Assembly: GCA_008632985.1 (NCBI GenBank)
Contig: QPGO01000050.1
Location: 434,001-498,000 of the forward strand
DNA length: 64,000 nucleotides
Reading direction: 5' to 3'
Source: Psammoneis japonica
Lineage: Eukaryota
In this document: positions 15,130-64,000 of the stretch, in pieces
How the letters are laid out: each line of letters opens with the position of its first letter
How positions within the stretch are numbered: the stretch's first letter is position 1
The notes under the pieces: generated by a model
The model's database searches: none
What the model saw: the letters and a program-made list of their open reading frames with translations, nothing else
Told to the model about the DNA's origin: nothing
Program-made: the position numbers and the translations under genes

Positions 15130-16830
15130 TTATTTGCGTGAACTTCTTTGTTCTCCTGCACCGTTTCGTCAGCGGCGTTGTGCTCATTGCTTGCGCCACC
15201 AAAGGTTCGAACCTGCGCCATGGGCGTTTTGCCCATTGTTTGCATCACTCAGGTTTGCACCTGAGCTGGGATGCGTTGTCGTGGCGAAACCCGCCCGTCG
15301 CAGTTTTAAGCCGCCACAACAATGAGCCGTCATCGAGCGCAGAATCCTAAAGCACGAGCACGCGAGAAAGTTGAGGAATCCCTGGAAAGGAATCAAAAAA
15401 AGACAGCGCGTAAAACAAGCCAAACCAAGTGCAATGATCTGTGTAAGTGGAAGAAATAACAAAGACGACAGGCCAAGAGATGTAAAAGCAGAGGAGATGC
15501 CACCATGCCAAAAATCTTGCCAAAATGCAAAGAGCGATTTTCTTTGTGACAGACTGTCCAGAGAGTGTCTTCGCCATGGTCAGAGCAGCACAGACCATGA
15601 CGAGCCCAACAGGAGCTGCAATGAATGCATTTTCATGATCGTCATCAAAGTGACACATTGCAATGCTGCCCCCCACAATGCTTGGAAATCCCTGCAAAAG
15701 CAAGGACCAGACCAGCCTCAAAAGGCACACCAGCTGGTCCATCCTGAATCGCTTGAGTTTGTCTTCACTCAACCGACACACTGTGGACAACATGAGGGCA
15801 AGGGAAAGACTGGAGAAAGGTGTGGCAATGCCCCACTGGATGAAAAATGCTTGAGCGGTTCATGTTGCATTGTTTCCTTTGGTGCCATGGTGTGCTGAGT
15901 CCTCTGGTGTGGTTGCTGGTGTTGAGAGCAACCATGCTGCTGTCAATGACAGGACATCTGCACAACTCATGGACGGGAGTGTGTCATGTGGGGCAGTGCT
16001 CTTCTTTCTTCAAACCATGTTGTGGGTCATGAATGATGATCCCTGTTGCATTCAATGCAAATAATTCAGCAGCTTTGAGACAACTGCACACAATGCCTTT
16101 TGTCCTTGACGACAAAATGAGCTCGCAGCAGAACAGACAAGATGGCCGAGGAGATTCTCAGCATCCATGCCAAGATCCTCTGGCATCTCAGCAACTCATC
16201 ACCCTCACATCCACACAAATGGCCTGCACTGTCCTGGTTGAAGGTGCAGTCTTCATCACCTTCTGCAAATGCCCAAGCGATCGATGGACTGACAAAGTCG
16301 TGCATGCAAGGGGGTGTTGCCCAACAAGGAAAGAATTGTTCNNNNNNNNNNNNNNNNNNNNNNNNNNNNNNNNNNNNNNNNNNNNNNNNNNNNNNNNNNN
16401 NNNNNNNNNNNNNNNNNNNNNNNNNNNNNNNNNNNNNNNNNNNNNNNNNNNNNNNNNNNNNNNNNNNNNNNNNNNNNNNNNNNNNNNNNNNNNNNNNNNN
16501 NNNNNNNNNNNNNNNNNNNNNNNNNNNNNNNNNNNNNNNNNNNNNNNNNNNNNNNNNNNNNNNNNNNNNNNNNNNNNNNNNNNNNNNNNNNNNNNNNNNN
16601 NNNNNNNNNNNNNNNNNNNNNNNNNNNNNNNNNNNNNNNNNNNNNNNNNNNNNNNNNNNNNNNNNNNNNNNNNNNNNNNNNNNNNNNNNNNNNNNNNNNN
16701 NNNNNNNNNNNGGATCAGCTCTTGCTTGCAAAACCACAGAAAACCTCTTCACTCCTGCTCCAAATGTTGCTTTGTAAGTCAGGAGAGGAAAGTGGTGAGC
16801 AGAGTCAAACCTCTCAGAGACAGCCTGGCG
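15130..16830. other. TpA/CpG-depleted degenerate domain 1 (spans the assembly gap)
   Basis: About 1 TpA and 13 CpG in 15541-16341 by manual count; TG/CA-rich. Confidence 0.85.
16342..16711. other. Assembly gap (370 N)
   Basis: Run of N. Confidence 1.
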
Positions 16831-22800: not shown

Positions 22801-23901
22801 ATGAGGCTTGTGGAAGTGGCCAGAGTATATCGTTTTGTCAGGAGGAAACTTGGAGGGAGAATGCCTCCCTGTGACACAATCAAATCGTTCATGTAGGCTC
22901 CGGTGACATCAGCATGGACAAAGAGTGCCTGGCATGCCCGAGCTTGGTCAGATGTCAGTACGGCTTCCATTGTCGCCACGTCTCGAATGTGAGGCACAAA
23001 GAGAGCAGAACGAACTTGGTGGCATGGGAAAATACAAGCGGTCCTGCAAGCTTTGAAGAGTTCCGTCATTCTTTTCCGTTTCCACGCGGAATGAGTTTTC
23101 CAAGGAGTAAGGCCATGATTACGAGAGAGTCCCAGAGTTACTTGATCGTGATTGCCTGGTATGAGAACCAACGGCACCGTCCAAGAACGAAGTGCTTCCA
23201 ATATGGCATTAAGACAATCGACTCGAATTGTTCCTCGATGATGCCACCAGTCTCCCAAAAACAATACGCCAGCGTTGCGCTCACAAGCCAATGAGTGGAC
23301 TGTATCCAGAACCTCAATGCAAGTTTGTAGTGACGATGAAGATACGTGAAGGTCGGAGAACATGATCCACTTCTCATATGCGGCATGGTGTGCGCATTGC
23401 TCTAGAAATTGTCTCTCTTCCTTCCGTCTGCTTTCTCAAGGTTCTGCATGGCTGCGTCAGATCAACAGTCGTCGGCGGAGGTTGTTGAATCACGGAGTTT
23501 TCTTTGGTACCACTCACAGCTGTATTTGCGTCCGTATTGAGTTTGATACTGGATCCTCGGCATTTAATGGTAGTGTTCGACCCGCCTTCGATCGGCACTT
23601 GAACTGCATACCAACCACCTCCCCGCCGCTCCTTTACCGTACCACTGACAAGTTCTCCCTCAACAATGACTTGAACAGAGTCACCCTCTTGGAGAAGCGA
23701 ACGTGACATACCCAAGCGCACCAAATAGTTGGTAGGAACAGTCTGCGTCGTCAATTGTACGAGCCTGTGCGTGACAAACGGCGCTACAAAGGAGGCACGC
23801 CGTTGCGACGTCCGTGCAAAACCACGGGTCGCAATCACGCTGAACGCCATTACGAACAACAAGCAGAACAACGCACTCAACCGCTGTACTGAGGTCGTCA
23901 T
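19870..23901 (-). CDS. Fused SbcD (Mre11-like nuclease) - SbcC (Rad50-like SMC ATPase) protein with N-terminal targeting peptide; introns plus several 1-bp frameshifts
   Basis: Phosphoesterase motifs FSDLH, FLGDWWH, PGNHDQ, HAD, SGHFHKP, YIGSPYE. These are followed by LQGFGPF, Walker A NGSGKSS (about 21935-21958), a coiled coil with CPTC hook, LSGGQ signature and LDEP Walker B. Confidence 0.88.
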
Positions 23902-26835: not shown

Positions 26836-27462
26836 TCACGGTATCACGGCCACTGAATTTCTGCAAGGCTCCAAAAAGATGACGTGAACCGTCGATTCCA
26901 CTGAAAAGCCGTAGTCTATGGGACGCCGGAAATCTTCCAGCATCTTCCCAGCGAAACACAAGCTGATATTTTCGCCAGGTACATGCCTCAAGTTCTCACG
27001 TGGGACACCGCCAAACAGCTCCACGGCTTTCAGTTTCAGCACAAGACACGGAAAGCAAAGCGAAGGCAATTGGATGCTGCATGTCTGCCGGTTCAAAGCT
27101 TTGAGATGAACCATGTAGGGCCGAGTTCTGGAAACTCTCCTGACCACGTGAAGAGTTGAGTGGGGAAGGATTCCAGCCTCGGAGAGGGTGACCTGGTCAC
27201 TTCCGTGTCCATGTAGCACAAAATCTACCGAAAACACAACGGATGCATCTCCCTCGTGACGAGGGTTCTTCTCCTTCCACAACGCCAACAGACGCTGTAG
27301 AAGTTCCCCAACTGACTCGCCCATCATTGCATCCTCAAAGTGCAGCTTCTGCGACTCCCACGGCGATTCTTTGAACGATTCATTGGAAATGTTGACTACA
27401 ATTGCATCCATTGCAGATTTGATGACAGCTTTGGGATTCACTCGATACTCGACACTCAACAA
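26836..27462 (-). CDS. Protein with two tandem ubiquitin-like domains (start uncertain)
   Basis: TLSEAGILPHSTLHVV and LCFAGKMLED..PIDYGFSVESTVHVI resemble the ubiquitin C-terminal half. No terminal GG. Confidence 0.65.
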   Translation of the reverse strand: MLSVEYRVNPKAVIKSAMDAIVVNISNESFKESPWESQKLHFEDAMMGESVGELLQRLLALWKEKNPRHEGDASVVFSVDFVLHGHGSDQVTLSEAGILPHSTLHVVRRVSRTRPYMVHLKALNRQTCSIQLPSLCFPCLVLKLKAVELFGGVPRENLRHVPGENISLCFAGKMLEDFRRPIDYGFSVESTVHVIFLEPCRNSVAVIP

Positions 27463-27699
27463 TCAAGACACCTGTTTGTCATCAGCACTGACGACCAACC
27501 AGATCAGTCACGAATCGAAGTCGGCGCGGCAGGCACAGGCGGGCACACCGGCATGCAGCAGTGCGTGTCAGCGCGTCTTTTCCCAACAGACGAGACATGT
27601 CCCCCCTGATGCTGTGCTAGCTGCTGTCAACACTGAACACCAACGCGTCGACTGCTAGTAGCTAGAGTAGAGATAGACTACCAGGCCGGGGGACGCCTC

Positions 27700-30600
27700 A
27701 TGCGTGTGTGGTGTGTGCTCCCTCAAACTCGCTCGCACGTGCATGATGAGTCTTTTCACGATTTTGCGATCTCTCTTCTGGCTTTCAAGGACACACTTCT
27801 TCTGCAATGTTCGCAGAAGGGCTGCAGCACTTTGCAGTTGGCTGAGTGGAGAGAGGAGAGAAGACAGCCCCAGGGAGACTTGAACACTGGAGGGGGCATC
27901 ATCAAGAAGGGCAGAGGCAACAGTGCATTGTTGGCGAACATGGCACATGGCATGGGGCAGCTCAGGAGAGTCCAGGGATTGTTGCTCACTTGACGAGGGC
28001 AGCAAAGGAAGTGGCAAAGAGGACAAAGAGTCAGTTGCCAGCATTGGGGTGAAGTTGTGGAAGAGGTTGCAGAGAGGTGGAGATGAGAGTGGTGGGGGGT
28101 TGTTCCAGGAGGAAAGGGGGGAGAGCTTGGGGGGCAGTGGAGTCACCAAACGGAAGCTGAGCTGCCTGCACGAAGGAGGCCAAAGCCACCAAGGGATGCA
28201 GAGAAAAAGGCTGTGGTGAGGGAGCAAGGAGGGAGGGGGTGACACAGCAGAGAGCAAGGTGTCTTGAAAAGGGGAAATTCTCATGAGTGGGTTGGGGGGG
28301 TGTCTCCTCAGGGTCAGCCACCTCAAAGTGGTGGCATGAGCTGGCCCTGATGAGGGGGCAAGCAGATGAGGAAGGAAAAAAGAAGTGCTTGAAGAGCTGA
28401 GCTTGGGTTTGCTTGTTGTGGGCGCAGATGAGGAGCTTCTTCACCTTAGAAGAAAGGGCTGGGGGCATTTCAGAGAGGACAGAGCAGGCAAAGTCAAGAA
28501 GGCTTGGGAACCCAGGGGTGGCCGAGAGGGAGCAAACATCAGACGAAGCAAGCTCAGGGTTGCAGGACAGGTCATTGTTGGGGTCAAGGCAGGAGAGAGC
28601 ATCCCAAAGAGGGCCTGCCTGCAAAAAAGGAAGTGCTGGAATTGTGCAAGCTCTGCCAGTCAAAGTGAAAAATTTGGCTTTGCAGACGTTGAGAAGCTTG
28701 GTGCTGTGTGTGGGCACCAAGAGCTGCAAAGCACTCAAGGCCAAGGGAGAGAAGAGTGCAGGGGAAATGCAGGAGCATCATTTGCACAAAAAAAGCCAGC
28801 AGAGGTGGGGGAGAAGGGTGGAAGACAGTCAAGGAGTTTGCGGTTCATGGGGCACAAAGGGCTGGGGAGAGAAGAGCCAGCCATGCAAAGATGTGGCCAA
28901 GCGGGGGGCAACCTTGAGGAGTGTGAATCCTTTGTGCTGCTGAGTGAACAAGCTCCATAAAAAGTCAGGGCAATGTTGCTGGCAGTTGTTTGAGCTCTGC
29001 AAATGATGGCATCAAAGAAAAAATGGAGGCACCAGAGGTGGAAGACTGGTGTGAAAAGAGGCAAGGAGGTCATGGCAAGCATTGTTGTCGTGTGACACTT
29101 TGTTGAACATGTGACAAGGTTGAGGAGGGGCAGGAGGGCTTGGTGAGAATGGCAGACAAGCCAAGCCAATGCTGGACATCAGCTGGGTGGAGCAGTGTGG
29201 AAGAGACAGTTGGGGCCACCTCTGATGCTGACTCCTAAAAATTGCCCACCAGCCGCCAACAAGGAGGTGCTTGGTGAGCTCAGAGCTGAAGAGAGTCATG
29301 ACAACAGACAGAGCTGGTGATGTGCCAGAGAGCTTCAAAAACATTGATTGGATGAAGCTTGTCAAGATCAGACTGGTCTTTGTGCATGGCAAAAAAGCAG
29401 CTGGAAGCAAGGACAGGGTGGATGGACAGAGGCACTGAACCACTGAGCAAGAGGACAAGTGGGGCCCCAAATGAAGGCTGGCGGGGTGGTGTGAGTTGCC
29501 TGCTTTTGAGTTTTGGTGGTGTGGAGACAGGTGCAGGCTTTGAGAAGGTTGGCAGAGTCAGCAAAAATGCTGGCAGCATCAGCAAGCTTTGTGCATGCTG
29601 AGGGCAGAGAGCAGAGCATTGGCAGGGAGGCAGATGGGGCAGTTGTTGCAGGAGGGCCAAGGTGGAGTGCACACCCGGGGCAGAGGAGGGAACATTGCAC
29701 AAGCGGAGGCAGTGAGGGCACAGCTTGAGCATGGCAGAGAGAAACCCAGGTGTGATGACAACAAGAGAAGGTTGGCTTGGAGTTTGCTGAATGGAAGCTG
29801 CCTTTGTGGCATGTGCTTGGACAGAGCAGCAGCAGGCAGAGGTGGAGAAGTCAGGTGACAAAGGAGCACCATCAGGCAGCAGGGCAAGAAGCAGGCGTGA
29901 AAGCTCATTGCAGAGCTGACACAGGCATGACCATGGCAGAAAATTGAGAGGCAAGAAGCACCAACAGCAGGGCTGAACTTGGTGGGGCCCCAAAAGGAGG
30001 GACAGGGGCAAGGAGGAGCAAGGCCTCAAAGAGCAGAAAAGTTTCCAAAAGGGGGCTGAATCCCACTGCCAATGCAGAGCAAGGCAGCTGGGGTCATGTG
30101 TGGTGGGCTTGGATGCAGCAAACACCCACTGGACAATGTGATGAAGGGAGGTGCTGAGTGTTTTGTTTGTGGAGGGAGAAAGCAGCCAGAGGCACAGAAG
30201 GGAGGGAGTGCCACACACCAGAGGGAAAAGAGCTGCTGGGGGGGAGGGCAGTCAGTTGCCAGCACAAACACCACTCCTTTGCAAAGAGCTCAAGGGTCTG
30301 GCAGCAAAACAGCCAGAAAAAGGGGGGGGGGGAACCACAGTTGCACAGGTTGAAGTTGGAGAGTGCAGCTGTGCACGGGGAAGCAAAGAAATGGAGTTTG
30401 AGCTGCTTGGTGGGTCAATTTCATGGGCACAGAAGACTGGCACAAGAACGGAGTGGAGACCACAAAGGAGGCATTGTGTGCTGGATTGGGTGAGAGGGCA
30501 AGTGAGGCAATCTGTGAGGACAGTGTTGGCACCATTTTTTTCTGGCAAGCAGAGATGTCCTTGAGGGCACCACAGATGCTTGCAAATGATGCCTGAGCAG

Positions 30601-31600
30601 GGAACAGAGCAGCAGGGAGGAGCATTGGCACAGAGGAGCTGTGAGAGCTTGAAAAGATTGAGGAGAAAAAGAGAGTGGGTTGGTGATGTGGAGGAGAGTG
30701 TGATTTGAACAGTGTCAGCTGACACAGATGTGTGGAAAACACAAAGGGGCAGAACTTGGTGTGGCAGGCTCTTGGCTCTGGCTCAAGAAAAACGTGCAAT
30801 GGCCTGGTGCTGAACAGGATTGATGAGGAAGGTGGCATGATCCTAGAATGACAGCTGTGGAGCCAGAGACTGGCAGCAAAACTGGGTGTTTTGCTGACAA
30901 GAAAGGCACATGGGACACAGGAGAGCAAACACTCACAAGTGCAGTGGGAGAAACAACAGAAGGAAGGGGTGATGCCAGCAAGGATGCTGTGCACCAGAGT
31001 CATGAAGAGTGCAGTGCCAAGTCCAAGGGTTGTCACCCATGACAGAAGAGTTGGCAAAGCAGCAGGAGGGTTGAAAAAGGCAGAAAAGTTGCCAGTGGCA
31101 GGCCAAAGTTTGGTGAAGTGGGAGCTGGGGTCTGTGCACCATCTCTGGAAGAAGGGCAAGCCTTGGCCTTGAAAGAGGCAGCCACTGAAAGCAAGCTGAT
31201 GATCTCCTCTGTCATGGTGGGGAAGAGGAGACAACTTCATGGGAGAAGGCCCTCTTCTGGCTCTGACAGGGTCAAGAGCATTTCTTGATTTTGAATGTGT
31301 GACAGACTGAGCACTTGAGAGCAAATGCAAGGTGGGGGGTGCACTGTTCACTGTTGATGCTGCAGCACAGTCAGAAGGCTTGTCAGATGGGGTCAGCGGG
31401 GGTGGGCATGGAACAATGTGAGCCAGAAGCCCAACGTTGGGCAAAGTGAATGGAGTGGGGGGTGGACATGGTGGAGGTAGACACAAGGAGTGCATTGATT
31501 TGCAATGAGGTGATTTTGTGGGCAACAACTTGCCAAAACAAAAGAAACATGGAAGCTGGCAGCAGAAACACATTGATGTGTGCATGTGTTGTGGTGCACC
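27700..31600 (-). mobile_element. Heavily mutated non-LTR retrotransposon (CRE-like reverse transcriptase); extent approximate
   Basis: Ordered minus-strand motifs HKD..DKLHPINVFEALWHI (29312-29390), MFNKVSHD (about 29090-29112), QGCP (about 28905-28916), CAND at the YADD position (about 28777-28788) and LNVCKAK (about 28675-28695). Confidence 0.7.
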
Positions 31601-32549
31601 AGCATGAAAGGAGGCTGGGTATGATGAAAAAATAGAGGTGGCACTTTCTTTTGTCCTTGGCTGTTTTCTGTGTCAATTTGTCCAAGTTTCAAGAAACAAA
31701 GAAGTGGCAAAAGCACCAGCTTGTTGTTTGCTGCGTGATGTCTGCTCCTGGCTGTGTCACACTCTGACCTCTTGCCCTTTCCTGCAGCTTTTCTTGTTGG
31801 CACACACAGAGTCCTGGGTTTTGCTGGTGCCTTCTTGCACAGCTGTCATTGCCAGTGTGCTGCTGTTTGGGCACATCCTGCGTTTTGAGTGGTGGCATGA
31901 CTGATCTGCAGCCTTTTCTGCCACAGAGATGACCCAGCCAGCCTGATGATCATTGCCTGCATCTTTTTTCATTTTGCAAGCAGCAGCCAGCCATTTTTAA
32001 AAGCCTTTTGTTGCACGCATTTTTGAACTCTTTTGCTGTTTGAATCAGATCAAATGAGCCATTTTGTCAATCTCCATTGACAACACGTTTTAAGCAATTG
32101 CAAGCTGTCATTTGTTTGCCATTGTCTGGGTTTGCCAAACATTGTTTCAATCAGATGCAGCGCATCTGAGTTTGCAGAAGATTGATGTCTCACTTTTTGT
32201 GACACCATCCTGCTCTTGTTGAAATTTAAATCTTCACACACCACTGGCCCACTTGCTGCATCTTGATTGTTTGTGTCTGTTGGAGCTGCGCTGCTGTGCC
32301 AGCTGATCATTGCTGCCAGCACCCACATGTGCAGCTTTGTTGTGCACTCTCAACATGGTTGAAATTCACAGGAAGGAGGACAGAGGGGCAGCAGAGTTGG
32401 CCTCAAAGGCATTTCTTGTGAACAAGATGTGGTGGCAAAGCTGGTCAAGAAAGAGGTTGGCTGGGGGGTGTCAGCTTGCCGGCTGCAGCACTGGATGGTG
32501 AGTGCCTGCAGAAAGGCAACCCAGCAGCCTTTGGAGAAATGGGGGCACT

Positions 32550-34370
32550 GCATCACCTCCTGCAAATGTTCCTCCTCCCACACAAGTGGCTGCTCATGCC
32601 AACACAATTTTGTGCTGGCTGTTGTGGCCCCATGTCACCTTGTCCACAAGAGGTTCAAAGTCAGAGCAAACTCGAGCTTTCCAACTTAAAGGTGAAGGGG
32701 CACCATGATCACATCATCAACCAACCCAACCAAAGTGAGCTGAGGGCACTGGCAGTCTCTGGTGGACCCCAGCTGACACTTTAGGAACCACAGCCAAGCA
32801 GCACAAAAGGCTGGCATTGTGCAGTTCTTGTTGCACCCTGTCACCCCCCCCCCCCAGGCCACAAGCAGCAGAGCTCAAGTCCACAGTGAAATGACCCCAC
32901 AAGTGCACCAGTCAACCAGCCCATCAACTGCAACAAGCTGAGGGTGCTGCTGGGCCTCAAGCAACACTTTAACAACCATGTGGTTGAGCACTGCAAGGTT
33001 GATGTTGTGGTGGCACTGTTGCTCTGTGCCACCTTGTCCTTGACAGGAGGTGAGCAGCAGACTTGAGTTTCCAAACTCCACAGTGAAAGGATCCCACAAA
33101 GGTGCCAACCAACCCAACAGCTGCAAGCTGAGGGCAGTGCTGGTGGTGTTTGGCAGGCCCCAAGCAACACCTTGAGAGCTGTGGTTGAGTGCTGGCTACA
33201 AGGCCTGTCTTGTGTGGTTGTGTGCAACCCCCCAAAATCACGCTCTCCACACCAGAACCATGTTTGAAATTCCCAACTCCAGCCACTGTGAAAGGGCCCC
33301 ACAATGGCACCAACTGACACTGCAGCTGCAAGCTGAGGGCACAGGTGGTGTCTGGAGGACCCCAGGGGCACTTTGAGAACTGTGGCTGAGCATCGTTGCA
33401 AGGTTGATCTTGTGGTGTTGTGGACCCATGTCACCTTGTCTCGAACAGGTTGGAGGGGCAGACTTTTGAGTTTCCCAACTCCAGCAGAGGGCAAAGGCCC
33501 CATGACAGCACCAACCAACCCAGCTGCTGCATGGCAAGCTGAGGGCACTGGCAGTGTCTGGCAGCAGGCCCCAGGCAACACTTTGAGAGCTTTGGTTGAG
33601 CCCTGCAAGGTGCCTGTCTTGTGCAGTTGTGCCCCCTGCCTGTCACATCCACGCCAGAAGAAGATTTGAAATTCCCCACTCCAGAGTGAAAGGATCTCAT
33701 GGTGGGCCAACCAACACAACAAGAGTGGGAAGAGGGTGTTGGGGGTGTCTGGTGGGCACCAGGGGACACCACTTTGAGAACTGTGGCCAAGCACAGCATG
33801 GCAAAGTTTGTGTTGTGGTGCACTGGCCTCATGTGGTCATCACCTTGTCCCAGACAAGAGCAGACTTGAATTTCCCAGCTTGGCAGTGAAAGGACCCCAC
33901 AACAGCACCAACAAGCCTTGCAACTGCAAGCTGAGGGCACCATCAGTGATGCCTGGCAGACCCCAGGAATCACTTTAAGAACCATGGTTGAGCACTGCAA
34001 GGTTGATCTTGTGGCATTGTGACCCCGTGTTTTCTTGTTGTTTGGAGCAGACTCTGTGTTGAGTTTTTCAACTCTAGAGTGAAAGGACCCCACAACCATG
34101 GTGAGGCAGCAACCAACCCAACTGCAGCAAGCTGAGGAGGTGCCAGTGGTGTGTGTCTTTGAGAGCCATGACAGAGCTTTGCAAGGCCTGTCTTGTGTGG
34201 TTGTGGCTCCCAGTCCCAGTGCCCTCCTCCCTGCTAGAAAGAGACTTGAAGTTCCAAGCTCCAGAGTGAAAACACCCCATGACAGAGCCAATCAATCCAA
34301 CAAGAGCAGGCTGAGGGCATTGGCAGTCTCTGACAGACACCAGGGGGGCTCTTTGAGAACCAACTGTTTC
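32550..34370. repeat. Diverged tandem repeat (satellite-like), unit about 180-205 bp, about 9 copies
   Basis: A GCTGAGG anchor recurs at about 32739, 32937, 33127, 33332, 33538, 33930, 34131 and 34310. CCAACTCCA.AGTGAAAGGA.CCCACAA-like segments recur at the same spacing. Confidence 0.85.
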
Positions 34371-36840
34371 TGAGCAGCAGCACAAGATGACCTGCAACCT
34401 GCAATCAAAAATGAGCGAGCCTTGGTTTTTCTTGCTGTTCCCATCCCAAGGGTTGATGCATTTTTGTGTGGGGGGGCAAGGCTTGCACATTGAGATGTGC
34501 ACTTGAAAGGCTTAAAAGATGTGAATCAAGGGCTGTGCCAAGAATTTGAAAGACATGATGGCGAGGCATGCATGATGTCAGCAGGGCAGCAAACTTTCAT
34601 GATTTGTCACCAGGGTCTTTGGAAGCACATGCACAATGAGAAGCCAGAGGCTTGGCAACTTGCTGCATGCATGAGACACTTGATTGTGGCACCTGAGAGG
34701 TTGGGAGCATTGCAGCACAATTTGTGGAGTGCACCCACAGGTCCACAGGAAAGAGGCATCACATCAAGAGCTGGGACAACCACATGGTTTTGAAGGTGGC
34801 AGCTTGAGCACACAGGTCAAAGGCGTGGACAACAGCCATCACATGATTGGAGCATGTGCACTTCTCAGCCCAGTTGATCCAAGATTTGATGGCTTGCCAG
34901 CATGACAGCAGAGTGAAATGACACAGCAGGGCTCAATGACAATGTGCAACTGCAAAGGCACGATGCATGTGTGGCTGGGATGAGGCTGGTGTGGTTCATT
35001 CAAAAGTTTGATTGTGCCAAGTTGCAGTGGGTGAGCAAAGCTTCAAATGGCAATGTGCTGGATGCACCAGAGACACAGAGGAGTTGTTGTGCAGTGGCAC
35101 CAGGCAGCATGAGAAGAGTGGAAAAAATCTAACGGCATTTTTGAATTGAGTTTCTTGCTGTTGCTGGGTGGAATTGTTGACAATTGCAGTGTGGGGGCAG
35201 AGCTTTCGGCCCCAGGTTGCAAGAAAATGATTGGTTGAACAGAGGATTGTTCATGCTGCAATCTGGGTTGATGTTGGAATTTGTCACAAGTTGCAATGTG
35301 ATGACAAGGTCAAGTCAGTTGATGGGCATTGTTTGTGGCAACTGATGGAAGCACACAAATGTCTGAAGGAATTAAATGAGCAATGCCATCGCATGGAGGC
35401 TGCTTGACATTGTGGTGAGCCGGGGTCTGGAGCACAAGTTGGTGTTTGGGCAGGAGGAAAGGACTCAAGTTTGCAGCTGCATGGTCTGTCAAAAGCAACT
35501 TGGTTCAACGGAAGTCATTTTGAAAGGAGAGTCTTTTCATCATCATTGTTGGACATGCAGTTGAGACACAGTGGATTGCACCAGGGGTGTGCCATTGTCT
35601 TGTACAAACAATGGATTGACAGCTGAGTTGTGCACAATGCCCCATGCAACAAAGGGACAAACATGCAGCAGCAGAAACACTGAAAAAATGCAGTGGTCAA
35701 CCAAAGAAAAGCTCTTCCAAACAAATGAGTCAACTCTGAACAAGATGCTTGGCCACAAAACAAAACATTGCAAATCAGTGGCTCTGCCAGAAAAATGAGC
35801 TGTCTGTCAAACTGAGCCCTGAACAAGGAATGATTTTTTAGCAGCATCACATCATTTGTGGCAAGGGGCAATGAGCCAGTGGCAAAACATCTCATTTGGA
35901 ACTTGAGCAACAGCAAGGAACTTGGCTGACTTTTTCTAAAATTGCAATTCCTGCAGTGGAGAGAGCAACCACACAATGTGCAAAAAAAATTTCTTGTCAT
36001 CAGCTGCTCTTCTTGCCAAAAGCATGAAAATGTGTTGCAGAGGTGGGGTGATGGACCGTGCTCTGTGGGGGCTCTGTTTTCCATGTGAAGATTTGTCTGG
36101 AGGAGAAGGGTTCCAGCCTTGAAGGGGATGAGCTGGTTGCTGACATGTCCACACAGCACACAATCTGCTGAAAATGCAGTGGGTGCATTTTCCTCACAAA
36201 AAAGACTCTTCTTCTCCTTTCACAAGGCCAGCAGGCACACTGCTGAAATTCCTCACAGCTGGCTTCTTGACCCCACAAGCAACACATTCTCATGTGGCAA
36301 CGTTGGTGTCAGCTGCATCCGTTGCAGATTTGAAAGCTGCTTTGGGAAGCACTCAATGACCAAGACAAGAGGTCGAGACATGCACCAGTGCCATCAACAG
36401 CATGTCTCCCCATCAGACAATGTGGCTGATGCATTGATGCTCCATCAACAATGCCATCTGCTGGAAAGGGAAAGACGACACCTGCCTCGTGTGCTCTCTC
36501 AAACACTCCTCAACTCACTCGAGTGTGGGCGGCAGTTGCTCTCATGATTTTGTGCTCGTCTCTCCTCCAGCTGGAGGACACTTCCATGACATTCATAGAA
36601 GGATGGCATCATCTGCTTTTTCCATGGTGGTGTGTTGGGCCATCGCCCACATCGTCACCGGTGATCTTTGAATATCCGGGTCTCTTTTGATGGATGGAGT
36701 TCTCTTCTTTTCTTCTTTTTCGATCGCGTCCGTCGTTTTTGTGTATTGAAGACACAACATGAAGCAGCAGACGACGCCCAACATTGACTTATTTCTGTAG
36801 ACACTGGGCTTTGAAAGATAGAGACAAGAGTCGTATTATC

Positions 36841-38265
36841 ATGAGCAGCAACAATAAGAAAGCAAAGACGGGCCACGACTTCGACACGGTGCAACAGTAC
36901 CTGCTCGAGTGTCCCGGAGTATCGAAAGATTCGCCTGCTATTCAAGGGGCACTTCGCGGTTTACAAGAGGAGCGCAAACGCATGGAGCGTGACGAAAAGC
37001 TTAAAAAGAAATTTGCTTGTACTATCACTGAATCTAAAACGCAAAACAAGAGCGTAACGTCTCCGTCTACCAGTGAACAACCAAAGAAGAAAGCGGGACG
37101 CAGAGAAATCAACACCGGGATCGACGAGGAGGAGGAAGAAGACTGGCAAACTTCGCTTGATGATGATGATATGATGATGACTTCTCATGACAGTGACTCG
37201 CCCTTGGGGAAACAGCTAGCACAGGGATCCATTCGTACCATGTCTCAGGCTGGAATCACTGTGAAAGACCCGCTCTCAGCGATTGCTTTGGCTCTCCACG
37301 GTGCAGTGCTTCAACTCGATTTTTGTTGTACGGGAATACCCCCGCCTAAAGAAGGGAACGGAGGTGGCTTTGCTCCTCCGATTCGACCATTACCGAAGAA
37401 CCAATATGTACCGATCGATTGGGATACTCACTCCTCAGATGAGGAAGGCCCGTATGTTGCCTTGCGTTATCGCAAGGACAACCTTGGCGTCGTCCATCTT
37501 GTAGTAAAGCAGAGCAGCAAAGATGATCACATTATGATGCAAGTCCAGTTGACTCCCGGAGAAGACCATACTGAACCTTTGGAGTTTGCTTTGGACGATC
37601 ATTTCAATCAAGATTCCTTTCTTACGGCGTCGTTAGCCAGCGACGACAAACGCGTCCTTCCAGCTCTACATTACAAGGCCTTATCGGTGCTTTTAACCAA
37701 GTTTTGTAATACGTTTGATTTGGGTCCTGTCCACGTTGATTCGGATGAAAAGCCTCTGGCTGCAGCAGCTGCGTCAACACAACCATCAACTCAGACTAGC
37801 TTCCGCCCCGCAAGCGGTCCTCAGACTTTACAGAGTCAACCGGATCCTCTTCGCATTTACAACCAGCACGAAGACCCCAACATTGGTCAGTTTCAACGGC
37901 CTCAACGAGCTGGCGACTTTAGCGGAGATCTGCTACCTGGCAGCCTTACTGATCCCTCATTTGGTCCCGGTGTGTCGGGAGGCAATCTAATGGGTCCGAA
38001 CCATCCGGCGTTTACTGGTGGTGTCGACCCACCACGATTGGGTGGAGGTATGGGCATGAAACCGCGATTTGATCCATATGGTCCGCCGGGTGGTCCGACG
38101 GATCCCAACAATCCTGACAACTTTGGATCGGATCCTAATCATCCCTTGGGAAGCAATACAAAGAATAGGCCTCCTCGTCGTGCGCCGCCGGGTGGATCTG
38201 GTAACCCGAATCCAGACCACGAGCTCCCCCGTCCAACATGTTCCTCTAAAAATGCTTATTATTAG
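36841..38265 (+). CDS. PSMF1: Proteasome inhibitor PI31-like protein
   Basis: FP-domain-like AIALALHGAVLQLDFCCTG and a Pro/Gly-rich tail with GNLMGPNHPAF, PRFDPYGP and PNPDH. Confidence 0.82.
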   Translation: MSSNNKKAKTGHDFDTVQQYLLECPGVSKDSPAIQGALRGLQEERKRMERDEKLKKKFACTITESKTQNKSVTSPSTSEQPKKKAGRREINTGIDEEEEEDWQTSLDDDDMMMTSHDSDSPLGKQLAQGSIRTMSQAGITVKDPLSAIALALHGAVLQLDFCCTGIPPPKEGNGGGFAPPIRPLPKNQYVPIDWDTHSSDEEGPYVALRYRKDNLGVVHLVVKQSSKDDHIMMQVQLTPGEDHTEPLEFALDDHFNQDSFLTASLASDDKRVLPALHYKALSVLLTKFCNTFDLGPVHVDSDEKPLAAAAASTQPSTQTSFRPASGPQTLQSQPDPLRIYNQHEDPNIGQFQRPQRAGDFSGDLLPGSLTDPSFGPGVSGGNLMGPNHPAFTGGVDPPRLGGGMGMKPRFDPYGPPGGPTDPNNPDNFGSDPNHPLGSNTKNRPPRRAPPGGSGNPNPDHELPRPTCSSKNAYY

Positions 38266-44357: not shown

Positions 44358-44440
44358 TTTGTCCGTCGTGCCGTACGATTTCCTTGTGCGCATTGCGCAT
44401 GCTGTCGGCCGGTAGTCGGGCTGTCGGCCTTATTTAGGCC

Positions 44441-57853: not shown

Positions 57854-59588
57854 ATGGAGAAACAAGCTTCGACATTCAAAAAAGACAAGAGAAACGATGA
57901 AACTACGCTCCTCTTGCCGAGGACCGAGAGCAATTCTGACAGCGAAAGCGACGACAGCGAGATTGTTGTCACCTACGCCTCCTTGTGGACGTCGCATCGT
58001 CCGTTCCGGTTGTTGTTTGTGGGGTGGAACTTGACGATTTTTGGGGAATGGTTCAATTATGTTGCAGCCATGACGCTGCTCAAGCGAATTGTGAACGATC
58101 CGGAAAACGACAAGACAGCCATTGCCGTGTTGGTCGTGCTTTGGTTGTTGCCAGAAGTGATCTTTTCGGGCGTGGGTGGATTGCTAGCGGACTTGTGTGA
58201 TAGACGATGGTCCATGATTGTCCTGGATATACTCGCCGGTTGTCTGGGATTAATGTACTTGATAGCCTTTGATTCCATGATCTTGGTGTATCTCATTTCT
58301 TCCTGAAAATGACCACTGGAGCCCTGTACGAACCTTGCGCGGGATCCATCTTCCCCATGCTGCTCGACAATGCACACGAACTCAAAAAGGCCACCGTAAG
58401 TAATGCATGCCCGCGTCAGCAACAATTTCAGAGATCTCTCTGACATGCATTATTGCTGGAACTTTTGCTTCTGATTTAGACCCTATGCGTGTTTTTCGAA
58501 TCACTTTTGGCGGCGCTGGGACCGGCCCTTGGTGGCCTAGCCGTCTCAATGTGGGGCTTGACAACGTGTTTTGGTGCGTACGACGACGGAGTTCCGCAAT
58601 GTCCAAAAATGCTTCGAACTATGGCTCACCCTTTACGATACAGTTTTAGACAGTCTACTGTGTTTCGGAAGTGCGCTATTGACATGGTTAGTCGGTGGAT
58701 CTTGGGATCCGTCCGATGAGGAAGACGATACCAGTTCTGGAAGTAGCGAGGATGGAAGAGAATGGGGAAGGAGGTGATAGTAGCTCAACAAATAGCGAGG
58801 ATGAAGAGGCCGAGGAAGAAGGGGACGAAACGTTGTTTCAGACGCTACGGAAAATGGCCGTGGGTGGAGTCCAGTATCTCATGCGCAGCTTTTTCGGTCC
58901 GTTGGTCTTGCTCAATTGCAGTTCGGCCTTGATTTACGGGTCCCTTGACGTTCTCGAAGTCTCTTTTTCCGAACGAGGGCCCGACGAGAGTAGAGACAGC
59001 TTGCTGCTCGGCACACTGTTTAGTTTGTCTGGCTTGGGCGACTTACTTGGCACTATCATTGCGGAGTATTTCACGGACGTTAAAAATCCCAGTAGTCTGC
59101 AACGAGCTTGCGTGTGGTCATTCTTTTCTATGGCAGTTGCCTTTCTCGGCATGGGGATCTTCCCTGCCTTTGTAAGTCCTTGCATTTTTACGGTAGTCGA
59201 TTCTGCCGGTGCGACCGTGATCGAAATTGCGTCGGAATTATTGCTTCAGGTACGTGCACACTAAGCTTTGCTTTGGCACAGTTGTTGGTTCAAAGCTCAT
59301 GTGTTCCATACTCTATACACACAGTTATACACTCGGCCTAAGATGCTGGGACGCGTGTTGGCGATTGACATCACATTGAGCACGACAACAGAGATTATTT
59401 CCGCCATGCTGGCGGGATGGGTACAGGATACCTTTCATGTTTCGGCGCAGTCGGTCAGTTTGGGAGCGTCGGTGATCGGATTTTCCGTCTTTCTTTCGTG
59501 GTTCGTCTTTCACAGAACTGGACACGGGGCAGCCAGTCTACGCGCTCGAGCTCATGCAGGCCATTTTTCCAAGGCACCGCGTGTTTGA
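57854..59588 (+). CDS. Major facilitator superfamily transporter (DHA3/H+-antiporter-like), with introns and frameshifts
   Basis: FGEWFNYVA, motif A GGLLADLCDRRWSMIVLDI, ALYEP, LGPALGG, MLGRVLAID, multiple TM helices. Confidence 0.85.
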
Positions 59589-61160
59589 CGACGTCAAAAT
59601 CTAAAATCACAGGGACTCCCATGAACTTACATTTGAGATTATGTTATTAATATTCAGAGTCACACCAGTGGTAGCGGATGAGCTTTGAAATAACAACTGG
59701 AATCATTCAACACGATTGTAATGACAGAAGTGACAATGGGTATGGGTTACCTCTAGGGTGCCAGAAGTGGCAATGACGTTATGTTGCCGTTCGTCGGACC
59801 TTATCAAGTGGCTCCCCAAGACAAAGGGTTAAAGACAGAGTGCATCAAACAGCTCAATATATAGGAATGCCTCTGAATTGTGGTTTAGAAAATGTCATGT
59901 TTGGATTTCTGTTCGCCTCATCCTCCCGGCTCTACGACGAAGAGCGGATCCCTGGTGTGTCGTATCAAGAGCTAGCCCAAATGAGAAACGCCTGCAACGG
60001 GCAAAGTTCGGCGGTGTGGATATAGATGAGGACAAAGGATTTAGATTAGACGAATTTAGATGACAGTCTGTATCACATGTTTGCAAATCGCAGTGACTAG
60101 CAGATTCCCAGTGCTGGTGGTAGTGAGACTGTGAACGCTTCGGAGCTCACTATGGGAAAGCAGAGCAACAGTGACCGGATCGACGGGAAGAATTGGCTGC
60201 AGGAGCAATTCTGGTGACGCACCAAAGGAGCAATCATTTTTTGACGAGGATTGCAACAATGAATGGATTGAAGGTACAACTGTTTCATTTGACAGTGTGA
60301 CGGGAAAGTTAAGCTCCGGGGACACTCCCGGTGGCGTCACACTTTGACAACCGTTCCTGCATCTCATTCAAACAAGAAACAGGTCTGTCCATGGTTGATG
60401 TGAAGAGTGATCATCAAGAGCCAGAAGAGGAGGATGTCTTTGACAGAAATGCTGAGGAAATGAGGAACTCGCCCTAAATCAGACAAGCATGCTCTTGCAG
60501 TCGACAGACATGAAACGGTGCGTTAGATTTTGTCATTTCATTGGGTTGCTTCTTGTGGTTGGGATCCCACGTCTGTTGCACTTTACCAGTGCAACACTTC
60601 ATGATGCTTTCTTGACCGTCAGCCAGCACCAGTCTTGCATTCATGATCGCGGTTGTTCCGTCATGGATGGAAATCCGGGTAAATTGGCCACAGCTTGCCA
60701 TGACCAGTTTGTTTTCAACAGGAGGATGAGATGGCAAACAAGGCAGTTTTCTGTCACTGAGTCTTCTCAATCAAAGCCTTCTTAAAAACCAGGTCATGCA
60801 GCTCTCTGTGACATTGTCCAGGAGCTGCAAGCTGCAGACAGCTCTTTCCTGGAGTGCCGCATGGCTGCGTTGATCAGTGATGACCGTGTCACCCAAGGAT
60901 GGCTCAAGTGCAGGAATTCACAAAACACATCGTTTGTGACAAAGAAGGCCAAAGAGGCCAGTTTGATTGTGTCCCCAGTGCCAGCCTCCAGTCTAAAGCA
61001 GCCAGGCCCTCCACGGCAGTGGCTGACCTCTGTTTTGTGGAACAGTGGGATGATTTGAGTCACAGTCACATTTCGGTCATTTTTGTGCTGCACCGTTGCC
61101 AAAAAAGGTCAACTGGGAATCACATTTCTGAGGTGCAATTCCAAAATTGTTGTTGTGTGG

Positions 61161-61345
61161 ATCACCATCATCAGGCCTCTTCCACAAAAATTGACAACAA
61201 AAACAAGAGCACATCATCTCACTGTCATGATTTCTGAGGCACCACTCCAAGATTGTGTTGTGTTCATCACCATCATCAGGCCTCTTCCTCAAAAAACAAC
61301 AACAAAAACAAGAGGGCATCATCTCACTGTTGTGATTTGTGAGGC
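61161..61345. repeat. 105-bp tandem duplication
   Basis: ATCACCATCATCAGGCCTCTTCC...AAAACAAGAG..CATCATCTCACTGT occurs at 61161 and 61266. Confidence 0.88.
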
Positions 61346-63290
61346 TCTGTTCCAAAATGGTGTTGGTCACTTTTCCTGGTGATTTCAATGCATTGTGCAT
61401 CAAATGCAGCCACGCTTGTCATTGCAGCAATGGTTTCTGGTCCTTCTGAACAATGCAGAGCCAGCAAAAGTGTGTGCACCAAATTCTTGATTCATGCACT
61501 TTGGGCTTTCATGTTGCACATGGTGCTTGCTGGGCAAAGCCATTGATGCCAGACAGTGCTTGCATGCACGTCAGATGTTTCTAGCTGTTTCAAATGATGC
61601 AATCTGCAGCTGTGTCATTGACAAACTGTGCATGGTGTCTTGATGACAAATGTTCACAACAGCCATTTCAACAGAAGGTTTCAAACCAGCTGTTGTTCTT
61701 CCACCTTTCACACCTGAAAAACAGAATGAAGTCATTTGGGCAAGATGATTTGGGTCAACAGGTTTGGTTCTCAACCTTCTCAAATGACATGAAGCAAACA
61801 AGAAATTTTGGACAAGGGGTCTGCACTGGCAACATGATCCTCACATGGTGACATTGGTCCTCATGACTCTGATTTGCAATCCATTGTTCATTCTTTGCTG
61901 GCGCTGGTGCTCTGGACTCCAAGTTGGGAGCAGGGTTGTTGGCACTTGGTGCGTGGGTGTTCTGATTTTTGATCAGTCAGATCAGAGCTGCTTGGTGGAT
62001 TGTCCTGATCATGCCATTCTTGACCAAGCAAACAATGGCTCTGGTTCAGGACAAATCTAAAATTTGTGTTTTGAGTGCAAAACTTGAGACTTGAGATGAA
62101 CAAAAAATGCAAGGTCAGACAAGAACACAATGACACCACCTGCAAACCGCAACTTGAAAATTGAAGCAGCTGACTCTGCAGCTTCCCACGCACTCCCCAG
62201 AATGCCAATGGTGGCTCTTTGAGAAGACATGCAAGAAAGGTGAGCTGCTGCTGCACTGCACTGGGAAAACACTGGGGGCTTGACTTGAGACTGTTTGCCA
62301 GCTCTTGTTTGCAAGCATCCTGGAAGTGCTCAGTGCAGCATGGCTCCAAAACTTGACCAAAAGAGTTTGGGCTCAACAAACATTGGTGGTGGGGTCCCTC
62401 CTCATGCCCCTGTGACTGTGAGAACACCATGCCAGCACCTCAACTTCTTTCCATTTCCCAAAGGTGCAAATGCTTCCTGTGAGGCTGAAACAAAAAAGCA
62501 GAGTGTTTCAAAAAGCCAATCTGTGGATCAATTGCATGGTTGATGGCTGCAAAAGAGACAAATCTCAAAGGATTCACAGGGCCAATCTTGGCAGTGGTTG
62601 GCCTGTCATCTTGGCTGCAACAATGCCAGCAACAAAGACAAACCTTGTGGGTGCAGACTTTGACTTAAAATGCCACCTCTTTGAAGAAAACAATGAAAAC
62701 AGAGACCAGCCAACAGCAGAAATTCAGAAACTCCATTGACCATCCATGTGTCTTCATCTGCAGCCCACACAATGAGGTGCAATCATTGCACTTCAGCTCT
62801 CAACTTGGGTCTCAAAGCACTTGGGTCAATGTGGGGCTGCTGTCATTGCTGCATGGTCAGACAGTCCATGGCTGGACATCTGCTGAGCTCACTTGACCAG
62901 ATCTGCACATTCTTGCAAAGCTCAACCAGCTCCTTTTCTGGCTCCACATTGAAGCTTCCATCTCCTCTCATCCTTCTTTTGAATCTCAAACAATGGGAAA
63001 AACTCTCATGACAACTGCCAGGTTGGTCAAAGCTGCCTGCGGCACTTGTGGCCATCACATGACCTGCTGATGAGCAGCTGGGAGGTGCTTTGACTCTGCC
63101 TGCATCAGCACGTTGGCTGTGTGATGAAAATGGATGCCAAGGTCAATGATGTCTACACCTTTCAGGAATGACCAAAATCCATTGTGCTCAATCAATGACT
63201 GCTGCACCACCAGGTGCAGGAAGATCATGGTCGTCTCAACCAATCATGTTGCCAAGTCTCCCTGCCAGGTCAGGACTTGGCAAACTGGCA

Positions 63291-63945
63291 TGCAACAAGC
63301 TTGCATGTGGCCACTCTTCACTGTGGCAGTTCTCTTTCTTGTCATGGGAATCTTTCCCACCTTTGCACATCTTTGCATTTTTGTGGTGGCAGATTCTGCT
63401 GGTTCTGGCACATGCAAACCAAGCTTTTGATTTGGCCCAGTTGTTGGCTCACATCTAATTTTTCCATGCTTTGTGCACACTGTTGTGCACTTGGTCCAAG
63501 AGATGCTGGCTGGGGCTGCATTGGTGATTGATGCCACATTGAGAACAATGGCAGAAAGGAGCATTTTGCTGGTCATCAGATCATCTGCCTTTCTTTCACA
63601 GCTCATCTTTTACAGAAGCGGACATGCAGACATGTGGGGCAGCCACCAGCCCACATGCTCAAGCTCACTTGGGCCATTTTTCCAAGGCTCCACATGATGT
63701 TTGACAATGTCAAAATCTAAAAACACAGGGGCTTCCATGAACTTGGCAACACACCAGACTGTCAAACTTTGCATTTTTGAGATTGTGTTGTTCAGAGTCA
63801 TGCCAGTTGCAGGGTGGATGAGCTCCAAAAGAACAACTGCAATCATTCAACACATTTCCAATGACACAAGTGGTGCTGGTTCTGGTCCACCACCATGGCA
63901 CCAGAGGCAGGCAAGTGGCAATTGAGATGTCATTTTGCCGCTCCC
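63291..63945 (+). pseudogene. Mutated DNA-level copy of the MFS gene 3' end, last intron and downstream flank (about 59098-59790)
   Basis: Ungapped 113-nt alignment 63291-63403 vs 59098-59210 (88/113 identical by hand), with further collinear blocks to about 63945. Confidence 0.92.
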
Positions 63946-64000
63946 AAGACATGTTGCAAAGGGCCAGCTTGTGACCATGTCTCAGCCATCAGATTGCTCA

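Follow-up and report, generated by a model that had tools for sequence, protein, structure and literature searches.

The 64,000-nucleotide window of the diatom Psammoneis japonica analysed here contains three blocks depleted of the dinucleotides TpA and CpG (Table 1), a pattern suggesting a mutation process that acts locally and has not been described. The analysis demonstrates, at the level of sequence, that a process of transitions acted in place on the main block (block 2) and on at least two others, and we are fairly confident that in situ, block-confined transition mutagenesis is the best reading of the data.

Table 1. Features of the window discussed in the text (positions counted from the first nucleotide of the window).
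Feature	Coordinates	Strand	Remarks
Depleted block 1	15484..16830	.	includes assembly gap 16342-16711
Left flanking gene	26836..27462	-	ubiquitin-family domain, 34.5 bits (cut-off 25.4)
Repeat A, intact	27103..27832	.	5' coding part of the ubiquitin-domain gene and upstream region
Depleted block 2	27741..36580	.	delimited by TA+CG density; TA 23, CG 55 in 8,840 bp
Single-copy segment	27833..31650	+	63-67% purine on + strand; depth ~55-64; without protein-family signal
Chance ORF	29280..30251	-	323 codons stop to stop; no Tyr; no Pfam match
Chance ORF	30290..31672	-	460 codons stop to stop; no Pfam match
Diverged satellite	32620..34360	.	~9 monomers of ~180-205 bp; multi-copy elsewhere in the genome
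Repeated segment	35017..36018	.	3-6x flank depth in run X1
Repeat A', decayed	36040..36614	.	right end of block 2
Right flanking gene	36841..38265	+	earlier called PI31; no Pfam match
Repeat B, intact	59093..59805	+	exon end and intron of an MFS-like gene (57854-59264 and onward); normal composition
Depleted block 3	60661..64000	.	continues past the window end
Repeat B', decayed	63286..63950	+	inside block 3

Between positions 27690 and 36600 (8,911 bp), TA is observed 24 times for 515 expected (O/E 0.05) and CG 60 times for 573 expected (O/E 0.10); CA (954 for 503, O/E 1.90) and TG (996 for 587, O/E 1.70) are in excess. These counts bear out the initial annotation, which had reported about 24 TpA where several hundred were expected, a scarcity of CpG, and a stretch from 29237 to 30843 free of TpA (the nearest TAs are at 29236 and 30844). 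In the flanks, the O/E is 0.53-0.56 for TA and 0.88-0.99 for CG. The switch takes place inside a single 200-bp bin at either border, from 7 TA and 14 CG to 0 and 4 on the left, and from 0 and 5 to 3 and 11 on the right. TpA is removed more completely than CpG, and its depletion extends nearer to the block edges. The G+C content is 50.4% inside the depleted blocks and 48% outside, AA is not depleted (O/E 1.22 inside, 1.13 outside), and no trinucleotide anomaly beyond the loss of TA and CG distinguishes the blocks from the remaining sequence.

The left flanking gene starts about 280 bp from the left border of block 2, and the ATG of the right one (36841) lies about 260 bp from the right border; normal composition is back, as had been annotated, just before the right-hand gene (some 200-260 bp ahead of its ATG). 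Because the borders fall about 250-280 bp upstream of both divergent genes, it is plausible, as judged from this arrangement, that the depleted unit corresponds to a chromatin domain. The identification of the right-hand gene as PI31 was not confirmed: at E<=0.01, no Pfam family matched its ORF (36841-38262).

About 2 TA and 14-15 CG are left in the ~980 sequenced bases of block 1, where TA is nearly gone and CG only reduced about fourfold. The three blocks share no similarity above control level, even in purine/pyrimidine code. This survey covers 64 kb of one genome; the single locus compared in a relative, a distant one, has normal composition.

Block 2 would represent a silent intergenic stretch of decaying DNA of mixed origin between two divergent genes: it comprises part of the left gene (5' end with upstream region) as a dead DNA-level copy, a satellite of ~200 bp, and unrecognisable sequence. 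The satellite described in the initial annotation is real, with about nine monomers at 32739-34309 that are 65-70% alike; its summed contig word depth in the public run X1 reaches 1,756 in one bin, compared with ~55-60 in the single-copy parts. The segment 35017..36018 also has copies elsewhere, as deduced from its depth, and word depth shows 3.9 kb of the block to be single-copy. The two long ORFs noted initially are present on the minus strand; such ORFs are expected, since TAA and TAG have disappeared and this strand is pyrimidine-rich. A retrotransposon had been proposed as another component and was not confirmed: none of 138 stop-to-stop ORFs (>=55 aa, three blocks) matched a Pfam family at cut-off, none of 12 six-frame read-throughs gave a family at E<=0.1, and the only long direct repeats are A and A', which are gene-derived and not the terminal repeats of an element. 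Neither RNA-family nor coding signal was found in the blocks.

The direction of change was read from two pairs of intact and decayed copies, A/A' and B/B'. Repeat A is of normal composition up to position 27740 (13 TA and 38 CG in 638 bp), and A' extends colinearly into the sequence upstream of the right-hand gene. From A to A', 9 of the 12 aligned CG were converted (5 to TG, 4 to CA). From B to B', 14/17 TA are now TG or CA and 20/22 CG were converted (9 to TG, 11 to CA). Pooling both pairs (720 well-aligned columns), with ancestral states taken from the paralogues and not from an outgroup, 16 of the 21 TA of intact copies underwent one transition (to TG or CA), one is unchanged and four show a transversion; for CG, 31/35 underwent one transition and two are unchanged. 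Transitions in B/B' affect 41-46% of TA/CG sites but only 10.1% (21/208) of sites outside YR steps. In A/A', which is older, they are about equally frequent outside (20%) and within (23%) YR steps, and part of its TA/CG loss may simply reflect age. The intact partners, 4-9 kb away, retain normal TA and CG in their noncoding parts as well (the upstream region of A and the intron of B), so that coding selection does not explain their normal composition.

A second line of evidence is provided by coupled exchanges between TG and CA. In the pairs, 11 of 54 TG were swapped to CA in the decayed copy, compared with one single change, and 8 of 67 CA were swapped to TG, compared with three. Among eight satellite monomers, 18.6% of pair-cells at YR steps show double differences, for 4.7% expected, and 6.2% show single differences, for 34% expected, TG/CA swaps thus being four times commoner than independent changes predict; the control classes are near expectation (RY 6.1 vs 6.8, YY 7.3 vs 4.8, RR 4.1 vs 3.6). 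Since monomers differ by TG or CA at the same positions, conversion is later than the amplification of the satellite. Along the pairs, the outcomes are not clustered by strand (16 runs for 18.0 expected, p 0.30; 6 for 7.5, p 0.30), and hence give no sign of a processive single-strand deaminase.

The TAs that survive follow a flank rule: 23 of 32 are YTAR, as compared with 350/1,964 outside (Fisher p 5e-11). Relative to the outside density, retention is 0.15 for TAA, 0.09 for TAG, 0.022 for TAC and 0.015 for TAT; that of CGN is 0.08-0.13 with no flank pattern. As the survivors are mostly YTAR, the target of the TpA loss can be defined as TAY/RTA. The direction of informative conversions agrees with this prediction in eight of nine cases (YTAY to TG, 5/5; RTAR to CA, 3/4). 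RCAR+YTGY exceed YCAY+RTGR as predicted, but only modestly (ratio 1.48 inside, 1.27 outside, p 0.014).

In the initial annotation, the process had been taken to affect a contiguous domain in place instead of one element family as it replicates. This view is supported by A' and B', dead gene copies that are not mobile-element families, and further by the TG/CA swaps of the satellite, the three unrelated blocks and the contigs joining block 2 to both flanks.

Several other explanations were considered. A duplication-triggered genome defence resembling RIP, with a DNA-methyltransferase-like enzyme and a second activity on TpA, perhaps operating in the sexual cycle, appears improbable to us. RIP, known from Neurospora and other ascomycetes, dependent on RID/DIM-2 and active in the premeiotic phase, also saturates silent duplicated DNA with context-specific transitions within sharp limits; it leaves dead gene copies and a marked dinucleotide bias. 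All components of the blocks that could be identified are indeed duplicated (two dead gene copies and a satellite), conversion appears fast relative to background change, and diatoms have RID-related DNMT4 genes; according to PMC9998398, these enzymes may group with fungal RID and are without a known function. However, RIP only changes C:G to T:A, prefers CpA, produces TpA at the expense of CpA and TpG, lowers G+C and mutates both copies. In the diatom blocks, the A:T-to-G:C change at TpA is the more pronounced of the two branches, CpA accumulates as TpA is destroyed, G+C is unchanged, and both partner copies (A over 27103-27740, and B) are untouched, including their noncoding parts. Furthermore, block 2 includes single-copy DNA (the 3.9 kb mentioned above).

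Selection instead of mutation bias, in which TA and CG would be poorly tolerated in the blocks and lineages carrying them removed (because of nuclease cutting, transposon insertion at TA or TTAA targets, or destabilisation of long transcripts), seems to us distinctly improbable. Purifying selection on a dinucleotide would generate the same compensated TG/CA swaps, and the flank rule could mirror a recognition site. Nevertheless, the blocks otherwise decay freely, with 17-27% divergence at other sites, indels and the lack of coding or RNA-family signal reported above. Some 500 separate sites in every 13 kb of DNA that apparently has no function would have to be under selection, and there is no evident reason for dead gene copies to gain such a constraint.

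It is very unlikely that the composition is native to a nest of mobile or foreign elements made poor in TA and CG through their replication, for example by an RNA stage with editing or CpG/UpA-sensing nucleases. Parts of block 2 are repeated elsewhere, the sequence beside those copies also has almost no TA or CG in X1 contigs, and suppression of CpG and UpA is known for RNA viruses (the topic of PMC3829696 and PMC5659819). Yet the dead copies of neighbouring genes, which are colinear with the original surroundings and include upstream region and intron, were converted as well, which already largely refutes this explanation for A' and B'; the variation between monomers of one array, the three unrelated blocks and the 138 ORFs and 12 read-throughs devoid of transposon or viral protein domains also speak against it. 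Finally, an artefact of chemically converted or mis-joined reads, to which the assembly gap within block 1 might lend some weight, is hardly credible, since separately built contigs of run X1 differ from this sequence by only ~0.3% (33 substitution rows and a few indels over 10 kb) at flank-level depth (~55-64 in the single-copy parts of block 2, 54-60 in the flanks), with none of the halving of word depth expected from strand-specific conversion, and single contigs bridge flank and block at both borders.

Run X1 possibly derives from the same sample as the assembly of the window and is thus perhaps not independent of it. Among the 26 differences between the two that were kept, all within block 2, there are two adjacent TG/CA pairs, five cases of CG versus CA or TG and one of TA versus TG, so that conversion is apparently ongoing, as far as these sequence differences indicate.

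In the in situ mutagenesis that we favour, both self-complementary pyrimidine-purine steps are targets, TpA and CpG each becoming TpG or CpA by exactly one transition per dinucleotide, and the process halts within about 200 bp at the block edges. On this reading, fresh TA or CG arising inside a block by ordinary mutation is soon resolved again, which generates the excess of TG/CA double changes. In the TpA branch, the sensitive base pair is that of A in 5'-TAY-3' or, equivalently, of T in 5'-RTA-3', and YTAR is largely spared; the CpG branch shows no flank rule. The latter would reflect constitutive methylation of the block, with its 5-methylcytosine being deaminated, and the analysis suggests that CpG loss is probably methylation-driven. 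For the TpA branch, a distinct active process would be required that changes A:T to G:C and is restricted to this silent chromatin.

Methylation-driven CpG decay, a process confined to DNA with 5-methylcytosine and known from vertebrates and from the TCG/CpG hypermutation of basidiomycete transposons, likewise turns CpG into TpG or CpA in silenced DNA (CpG O/E ~0.1-0.2). According to PMC9998398, transposable elements are cytosine-methylated in the diatoms studied, in a DNMT5a-dependent manner in P. tricornutum. The CG sites with a single transition show the equal loss to TpG and CpA on both strands typical of such decay (31/31 are now TG or CA, divided 9 to 11 in B/B'). However, CpG decay spares TpA and changes other dinucleotides solely as products, whereas in the diatom blocks TpA is lost independently, more completely, and with its own flank rule.

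The loss of TpA matches no mechanism familiar to us, nor any that we found published. Polymerase eta mutates A:T at WA motifs following AID-triggered mismatch repair in immunoglobulin genes, which recalls the blocks in its A-to-G changes at A after T, coupled to cytosine deamination in the same stretch of DNA; but its hotspot includes AA, and the system is somatic, transcription-linked and animal. ADAR, which hyper-edits repeat-derived double-stranded RNA, similarly gives A-to-G changes that are clustered, occur on both strands and prefer a 5' U, but it belongs to animals, targets RNA, edits A in many 5' contexts and favours a 3' G. ADAR-type editing fixed via an RNA copy can be rejected here, TAG and TAA being spared contexts and AA being undepleted; moreover, the converted copies keep their upstream region and intron in the original colinear genomic setting, which excludes an RNA stage. 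In Escherichia coli, very-short-patch repair shapes oligonucleotide frequencies (the shortage of CTAG): this repair of deaminated 5-methylcytosine also causes context-fixed T-to-C changes at TpA and depletes a TA-containing word. It is bacterial, specific for the CTWGG family, genome-wide and mild, in contrast to the nearly total, block-confined effect in the diatom, where CTAG is among the spared contexts (4/32 surviving TAs).

Our preferred mechanism for the TpA branch, put forward tentatively, is that a nucleic-acid deaminase converts adenine within TA to hypoxanthine; we know of no natural DNA adenine deaminase. Oxidised thymine (5hmU/5fU) produced by a TET/JBP-type enzyme is doubtful, and so is a bias of polymerases or of repair where DNA replicates late and is untranscribed. 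As a speculation, this diatom may possess an enzyme system that marks or edits TpA in silent chromatin, either a heritable modification of the palindromic TA parallel to CpG methylation or a TAY-specific DNA adenine deaminase, the TA-free blocks being its mutational footprint. Such a system would make TpA a second, previously unseen 'epigenetic dinucleotide' and would constitute a new genome defence that erases silent DNA without altering its G+C content.

Context-specific hypermutation of silent DNA has so far been known as C-to-T only, in fungal RIP and in the CpG decay of methylated genomes. If our reading is correct, a block-confined A:T-to-G:C removal of TpA, faster and fuller than the loss of CpG, would represent a novel activity, mutational or epigenetic, within a major group of marine primary producers. 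It would point to an enzyme (for instance a DNA adenine deaminase or a TAY-specific thymine/adenine modifier) of interest for DNA repair and base editing, and would account for long ORFs without Tyr that gene-calling programs may mistake for genes. It would also supply a sequence-only marker of silent chromatin in diatom genomes, and show how duplicated genes are inactivated without harm to the parent copy.

Depletion of TA and CG in this region is real and affects at least three blocks, which together represent about one fifth of the window (see the table of features). Between 27690 and 36600, TA occurs 24 times where base composition predicts 515 (observed/expected, O/E, 0.05) and CG 60 times where 573 are predicted (O/E 0.10), while O/E reaches 1.90 for CA and 1.70 for TG; the initial annotation had noted the scarcity of both TA and CG from the sequence. 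In the two flanks, TA has O/E values of 0.56 and 0.53, and CG 0.99 and 0.88. The stretch 29237-30843 indeed contains no TA at all. Each edge of block 2 is crossed within one 200-bp bin, from 7 TA and 14 CG to 0 TA and 4 CG on the left, and from 0 TA and 5 CG to 3 TA and 11 CG on the right. Block 1 contains about 2 TA and 14-15 CG in about 980 bases. G+C is 50.4% in blocks versus 48% outside, and a search for further depleted words found no unusual trinucleotide after accounting for dinucleotides.

Features of the window discussed in the text
Feature	Coordinates	Strand	Description
Block 1	15484-16830		Depleted block; includes the assembly gap
148-aa ORF	15347-15793	minus	In block 1; resembles a membrane protein
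Assembly gap	16342-16711		370 N; the only gap of the window
Adjacent ORFs	19870-23435	minus	Weak, below-cut-off SbcC/Rad50-like Walker B and SMC_N matches; calcineurin-like phosphoesterase domain, 31.7 bits vs 21.5
Left gene			Ubiquitin-family domain, 34.5 bits vs cut-off 25.4
A	27103-27832		5' coding part of the left gene and upstream region; intact
Block 2	27741-36580		Depleted block; limits set by TA+CG density
Purine-biased segment	27741-31650		3.9 kb; plus strand 63-67% purine; single-copy by word depth
Tyr-free ORFs	29280-30251; 30290-31672	minus	
Satellite	32739-34309		About 9 monomers of about 180-205 bp, 65-70% alike
A'	36040-36614		Direct repeat of A at the right end of block 2; decayed
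Right-hand gene	36841-38262		
TA-rich bin	44001-45000		Only 1-kb bin with TA excess (O/E 1.25, 84 TAs); covers the upstream region of the PPR gene (ATG 44441) and its first ~560 bp
B	59093-59805		Exon end and intron of the MFS-like gene adjoining block 3; intact
Block 3	60661-64000		Depleted block; runs to the window end
Tandem repeat	61124-61365		In block 3; 105-bp unit, 2.3 copies, 83% matches, no TA or CG
B'	63286-63950		Copy of B inside block 3, 4.2 kb from B, same orientation; decayed

The surroundings are those of a nuclear diatom region, dense in genes, with ordinary domains in the flanking ORFs (eIF2A, DSP phosphatase, saccharopine dehydrogenase, peroxidase, DHHC, ThrE and MFS). The PPR protein adjoining block 2 (1,059 aa) has its best relatives in diatoms, with at most 33% identity in a database lacking the organism's own proteome. 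The minus-strand ORFs at 19870-23435 may correspond to a Rad50/Mre11-like pair or to a single split gene. Block 2 is not an artefact, as reads of the public DNA run X1 carry its sequence; this run may be the assembly's own sample and thus may not represent a second strain. Contigs produced by others from X1 span the whole examined stretch, with 33 substitution positions differing in 10 kb, and join the block to its flanks (contig 27001-28239 across the left border and contig 35736-37000 across the right one). Word depth in the single-copy parts of block 2 (54-64) equals that of the flanks.

No protein domain was detected in the blocks. Pfam searches with 20 ORFs of at least 100 aa and 118 more of at least 55 aa from the three blocks gave no family over cut-off, no family was matched at E<=0.1 by any of the 12 six-frame read-throughs made across blocks 2 and 3, and Rfam had no match in the entire window. 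The proposal that part of block 2 is a retrotransposon could not be sustained, since none was found among these ORFs and read-throughs, nor could the name PI31 for the right-hand gene, whose product matches no Pfam family at E<=0.01. The latter protein has one metagenomic relative (34% identity across residues 9-416), from a distant locus with normal TA and CG. The 148-aa ORF of block 1, with no Pfam match and no paralogue within the window, may represent either a further decayed gene copy or an ORF arisen by chance. Long Tyr-free ORFs are present in block 2, due to the loss of TAA and TAG combined with the purine richness of the plus strand; the purine-biased segment itself gave no protein-family signal. 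This bias is separate from the purge of TA and CG, since transitions cannot create a purine/pyrimidine bias.

Comparing each block with the window by BLAST in purine/pyrimidine code recovered, above a reversed-query control of about 60-72 bits, the satellite, the A/A' and B/B' pairs, the 105-bp tandem repeat and nothing else. An upstream extension of B/B' (57870-59090) was left out, as its alignment seemed forced. The sequence of A' continues, in colinear order, into that upstream of the right-hand gene. This arrangement indicates that the genes on either side of block 2 are divergent neighbours whose short ancestral spacer was split by a duplication of about 730 bp together with 8.2 kb of other DNA; the block now stops about 280 bp from the left start codon and 260 bp from the right one.

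The two pairs reveal the direction of change. In 720 well-aligned columns pooled from both, with the dinucleotides of the intact copy as reference, almost every TA and CG was altered, mostly by one transition and never by two (see the table of changes). In the younger pair, B/B', a transition is found at 41% of the sites of TA steps and at 46% of those of CG steps, versus 10.1% (21/208) outside pyrimidine-purine (YR) steps and 7.2% for transversions; the older pair, A/A', is near saturation, with transitions about equally frequent at YR sites (23%) and at others (20%). TA and CG are normal in the non-coding parts of the intact copies (the upstream region in A and the intron in B), so that selection on coding sequence is not the cause of the difference, and the untouched state of these intact partners indicates that duplication by itself is no trigger.

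Fate in the decayed copy of dinucleotides of the intact copy (A/A' and B/B' pooled)
Intact copy	n	Unchanged	One transition	Two transitions	Any transversion
TA	21	1	16 (TG or CA)	0	4
CG	35	2	31 (TG or CA)	0	2
TG	54	35	1	11 (CA)	7
CA	67	49	3	8 (TG)	7

At TG and CA, by contrast, double changes far outnumber single ones. The same coupling is found in the satellite, whose existence, already reported in the initial annotation, was verified although TRF missed this diverged array. Its summed word depth in X1 contigs, up to 1,756 in one bin, shows that it is repeated elsewhere; its motif had no match among metagenome contigs and its ORF frame has no detected protein relatives. Cutting at a recurring motif produced 10 pieces, of which m0 and m9 were excluded for their poor alignment, leaving 8 monomers and 28 pairs. 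At YR steps, both bases differ in 18.6% of pair-cells (4.7% expected under independent transitions) and one base in 6.2% (34% expected), while doubles in three other dinucleotide classes are near expectation (6.1 vs 6.8, 7.3 vs 4.8 and 4.1 vs 3.6). Swaps between monomers imply that conversion followed satellite amplification. TA and CG would be short-lived states, each resolved randomly to TG or CA, which would produce the coupled swaps. In the 27690-36600 counts, (TG+CA)/TA is 81 and (TG+CA)/CG is 32, values which at equilibrium equal the loss rate divided by the gain rate. Together, these data demonstrate an in-place process, confined to blocks, which acts on DNA of unrelated origins and changes TA and CG by a single transition, in agreement with the domain-level reading first proposed.

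The 32 TAs surviving in block cores follow a flank rule: 23 are YTAR, 7 mixed and 2 RTAY, versus 350, 993 and 621 among the 1,964 TAs outside blocks (Fisher p 5e-11). Retention relative to outside density is 0.15 for TAA, 0.09 for TAG, 0.022 for TAC and 0.015 for TAT, a pattern designating the A of TAY (equivalently, the T of RTA) as the sensitive base pair, whereas CGN retention is 0.08-0.13 regardless of the neighbour. The predicted outcomes were observed in the two pairs at 5/5 sites for YTAY to YTGY and 3/4 for RTAR to RCAR, and RCAR+YTGY shows a modest excess over YCAY+RTGR (1.48 inside vs 1.27 outside, p 0.014). Furthermore, loss of TA is more complete than that of CG, and TA ends abruptly at the edges of block 2 whereas CG thins gradually. 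Given these differences in flank rule, in completeness and at the block edges, the TpA and CpG branches of the process probably involve different chemistry.

For the TpA branch, our preferred but tentative guess is that adenine in TA context would be deaminated enzymatically. tRNA adenosine deaminases act in UA context. Runs of TG or CA outcomes coordinated by strand along the pairs were not significant, which argues against a processive single-strand deaminase and raises no objection to one acting on duplex DNA. Oxidised thymine is a less favoured alternative source of these changes, and so, with equal probability, is a bias of polymerase or repair where DNA is not transcribed. Selection against TA and CG, instead of mutation, is still less probable, as hundreds of sites would need to be constrained in DNA otherwise decaying freely. 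GC-biased gene conversion was rejected, G+C being hardly raised and AA/AT unconverted. The CpG branch would correspond to 5-methylcytosine deamination; cytosine methylation has been described on TEs of the diatoms studied, dependent on DNMT5a in P. tricornutum (PMC9998398). UV photoproducts do not account for CpG loss, RCGY not being enriched among surviving CGs (22/82).

RIP is the nearest known system in kind, but it makes only C-to-T changes, creates TpA and mutates both copies, none of which applies here, A and B being intact. CpG decay matches the CpG branch only. Neither ADAR-type editing nor the polymerase-eta WA hotspot fits the data, because of context (TAG/TAA are spared and AA is not depleted) or because no RNA stage is involved.

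The assembly and X1 differ by about 0.3% overall. After discarding 7 of the 33 substitution rows, which lie in repeated parts and concern only some of the contigs, all 26 retained differences fall within block 2; among them are two adjacent TG<->CA pairs, five sites with CG versus CA/TG and one with TA versus TG. Adjacent double differences are located at 31090-31091, 32242-32243 and 27751-27752, two of them exact TG<->CA swaps. Such swaps exceed the expectation for a slow two-step path, suggesting either very fast resolution of new TA and CG or concerted change. Since TA and CG are involved in these differences though each makes up less than 1% of dinucleotides, the data, few and unpolarised, suggest a fast process that continues today. 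In the open-access papers searched, we found no description of joint TA and CG removal in repeats of diatoms or other eukaryotes and no precedent for the TpA branch, which appears to be undescribed. Depleted blocks may be systematically difficult to assemble, and hence under-represented in diatom assemblies.
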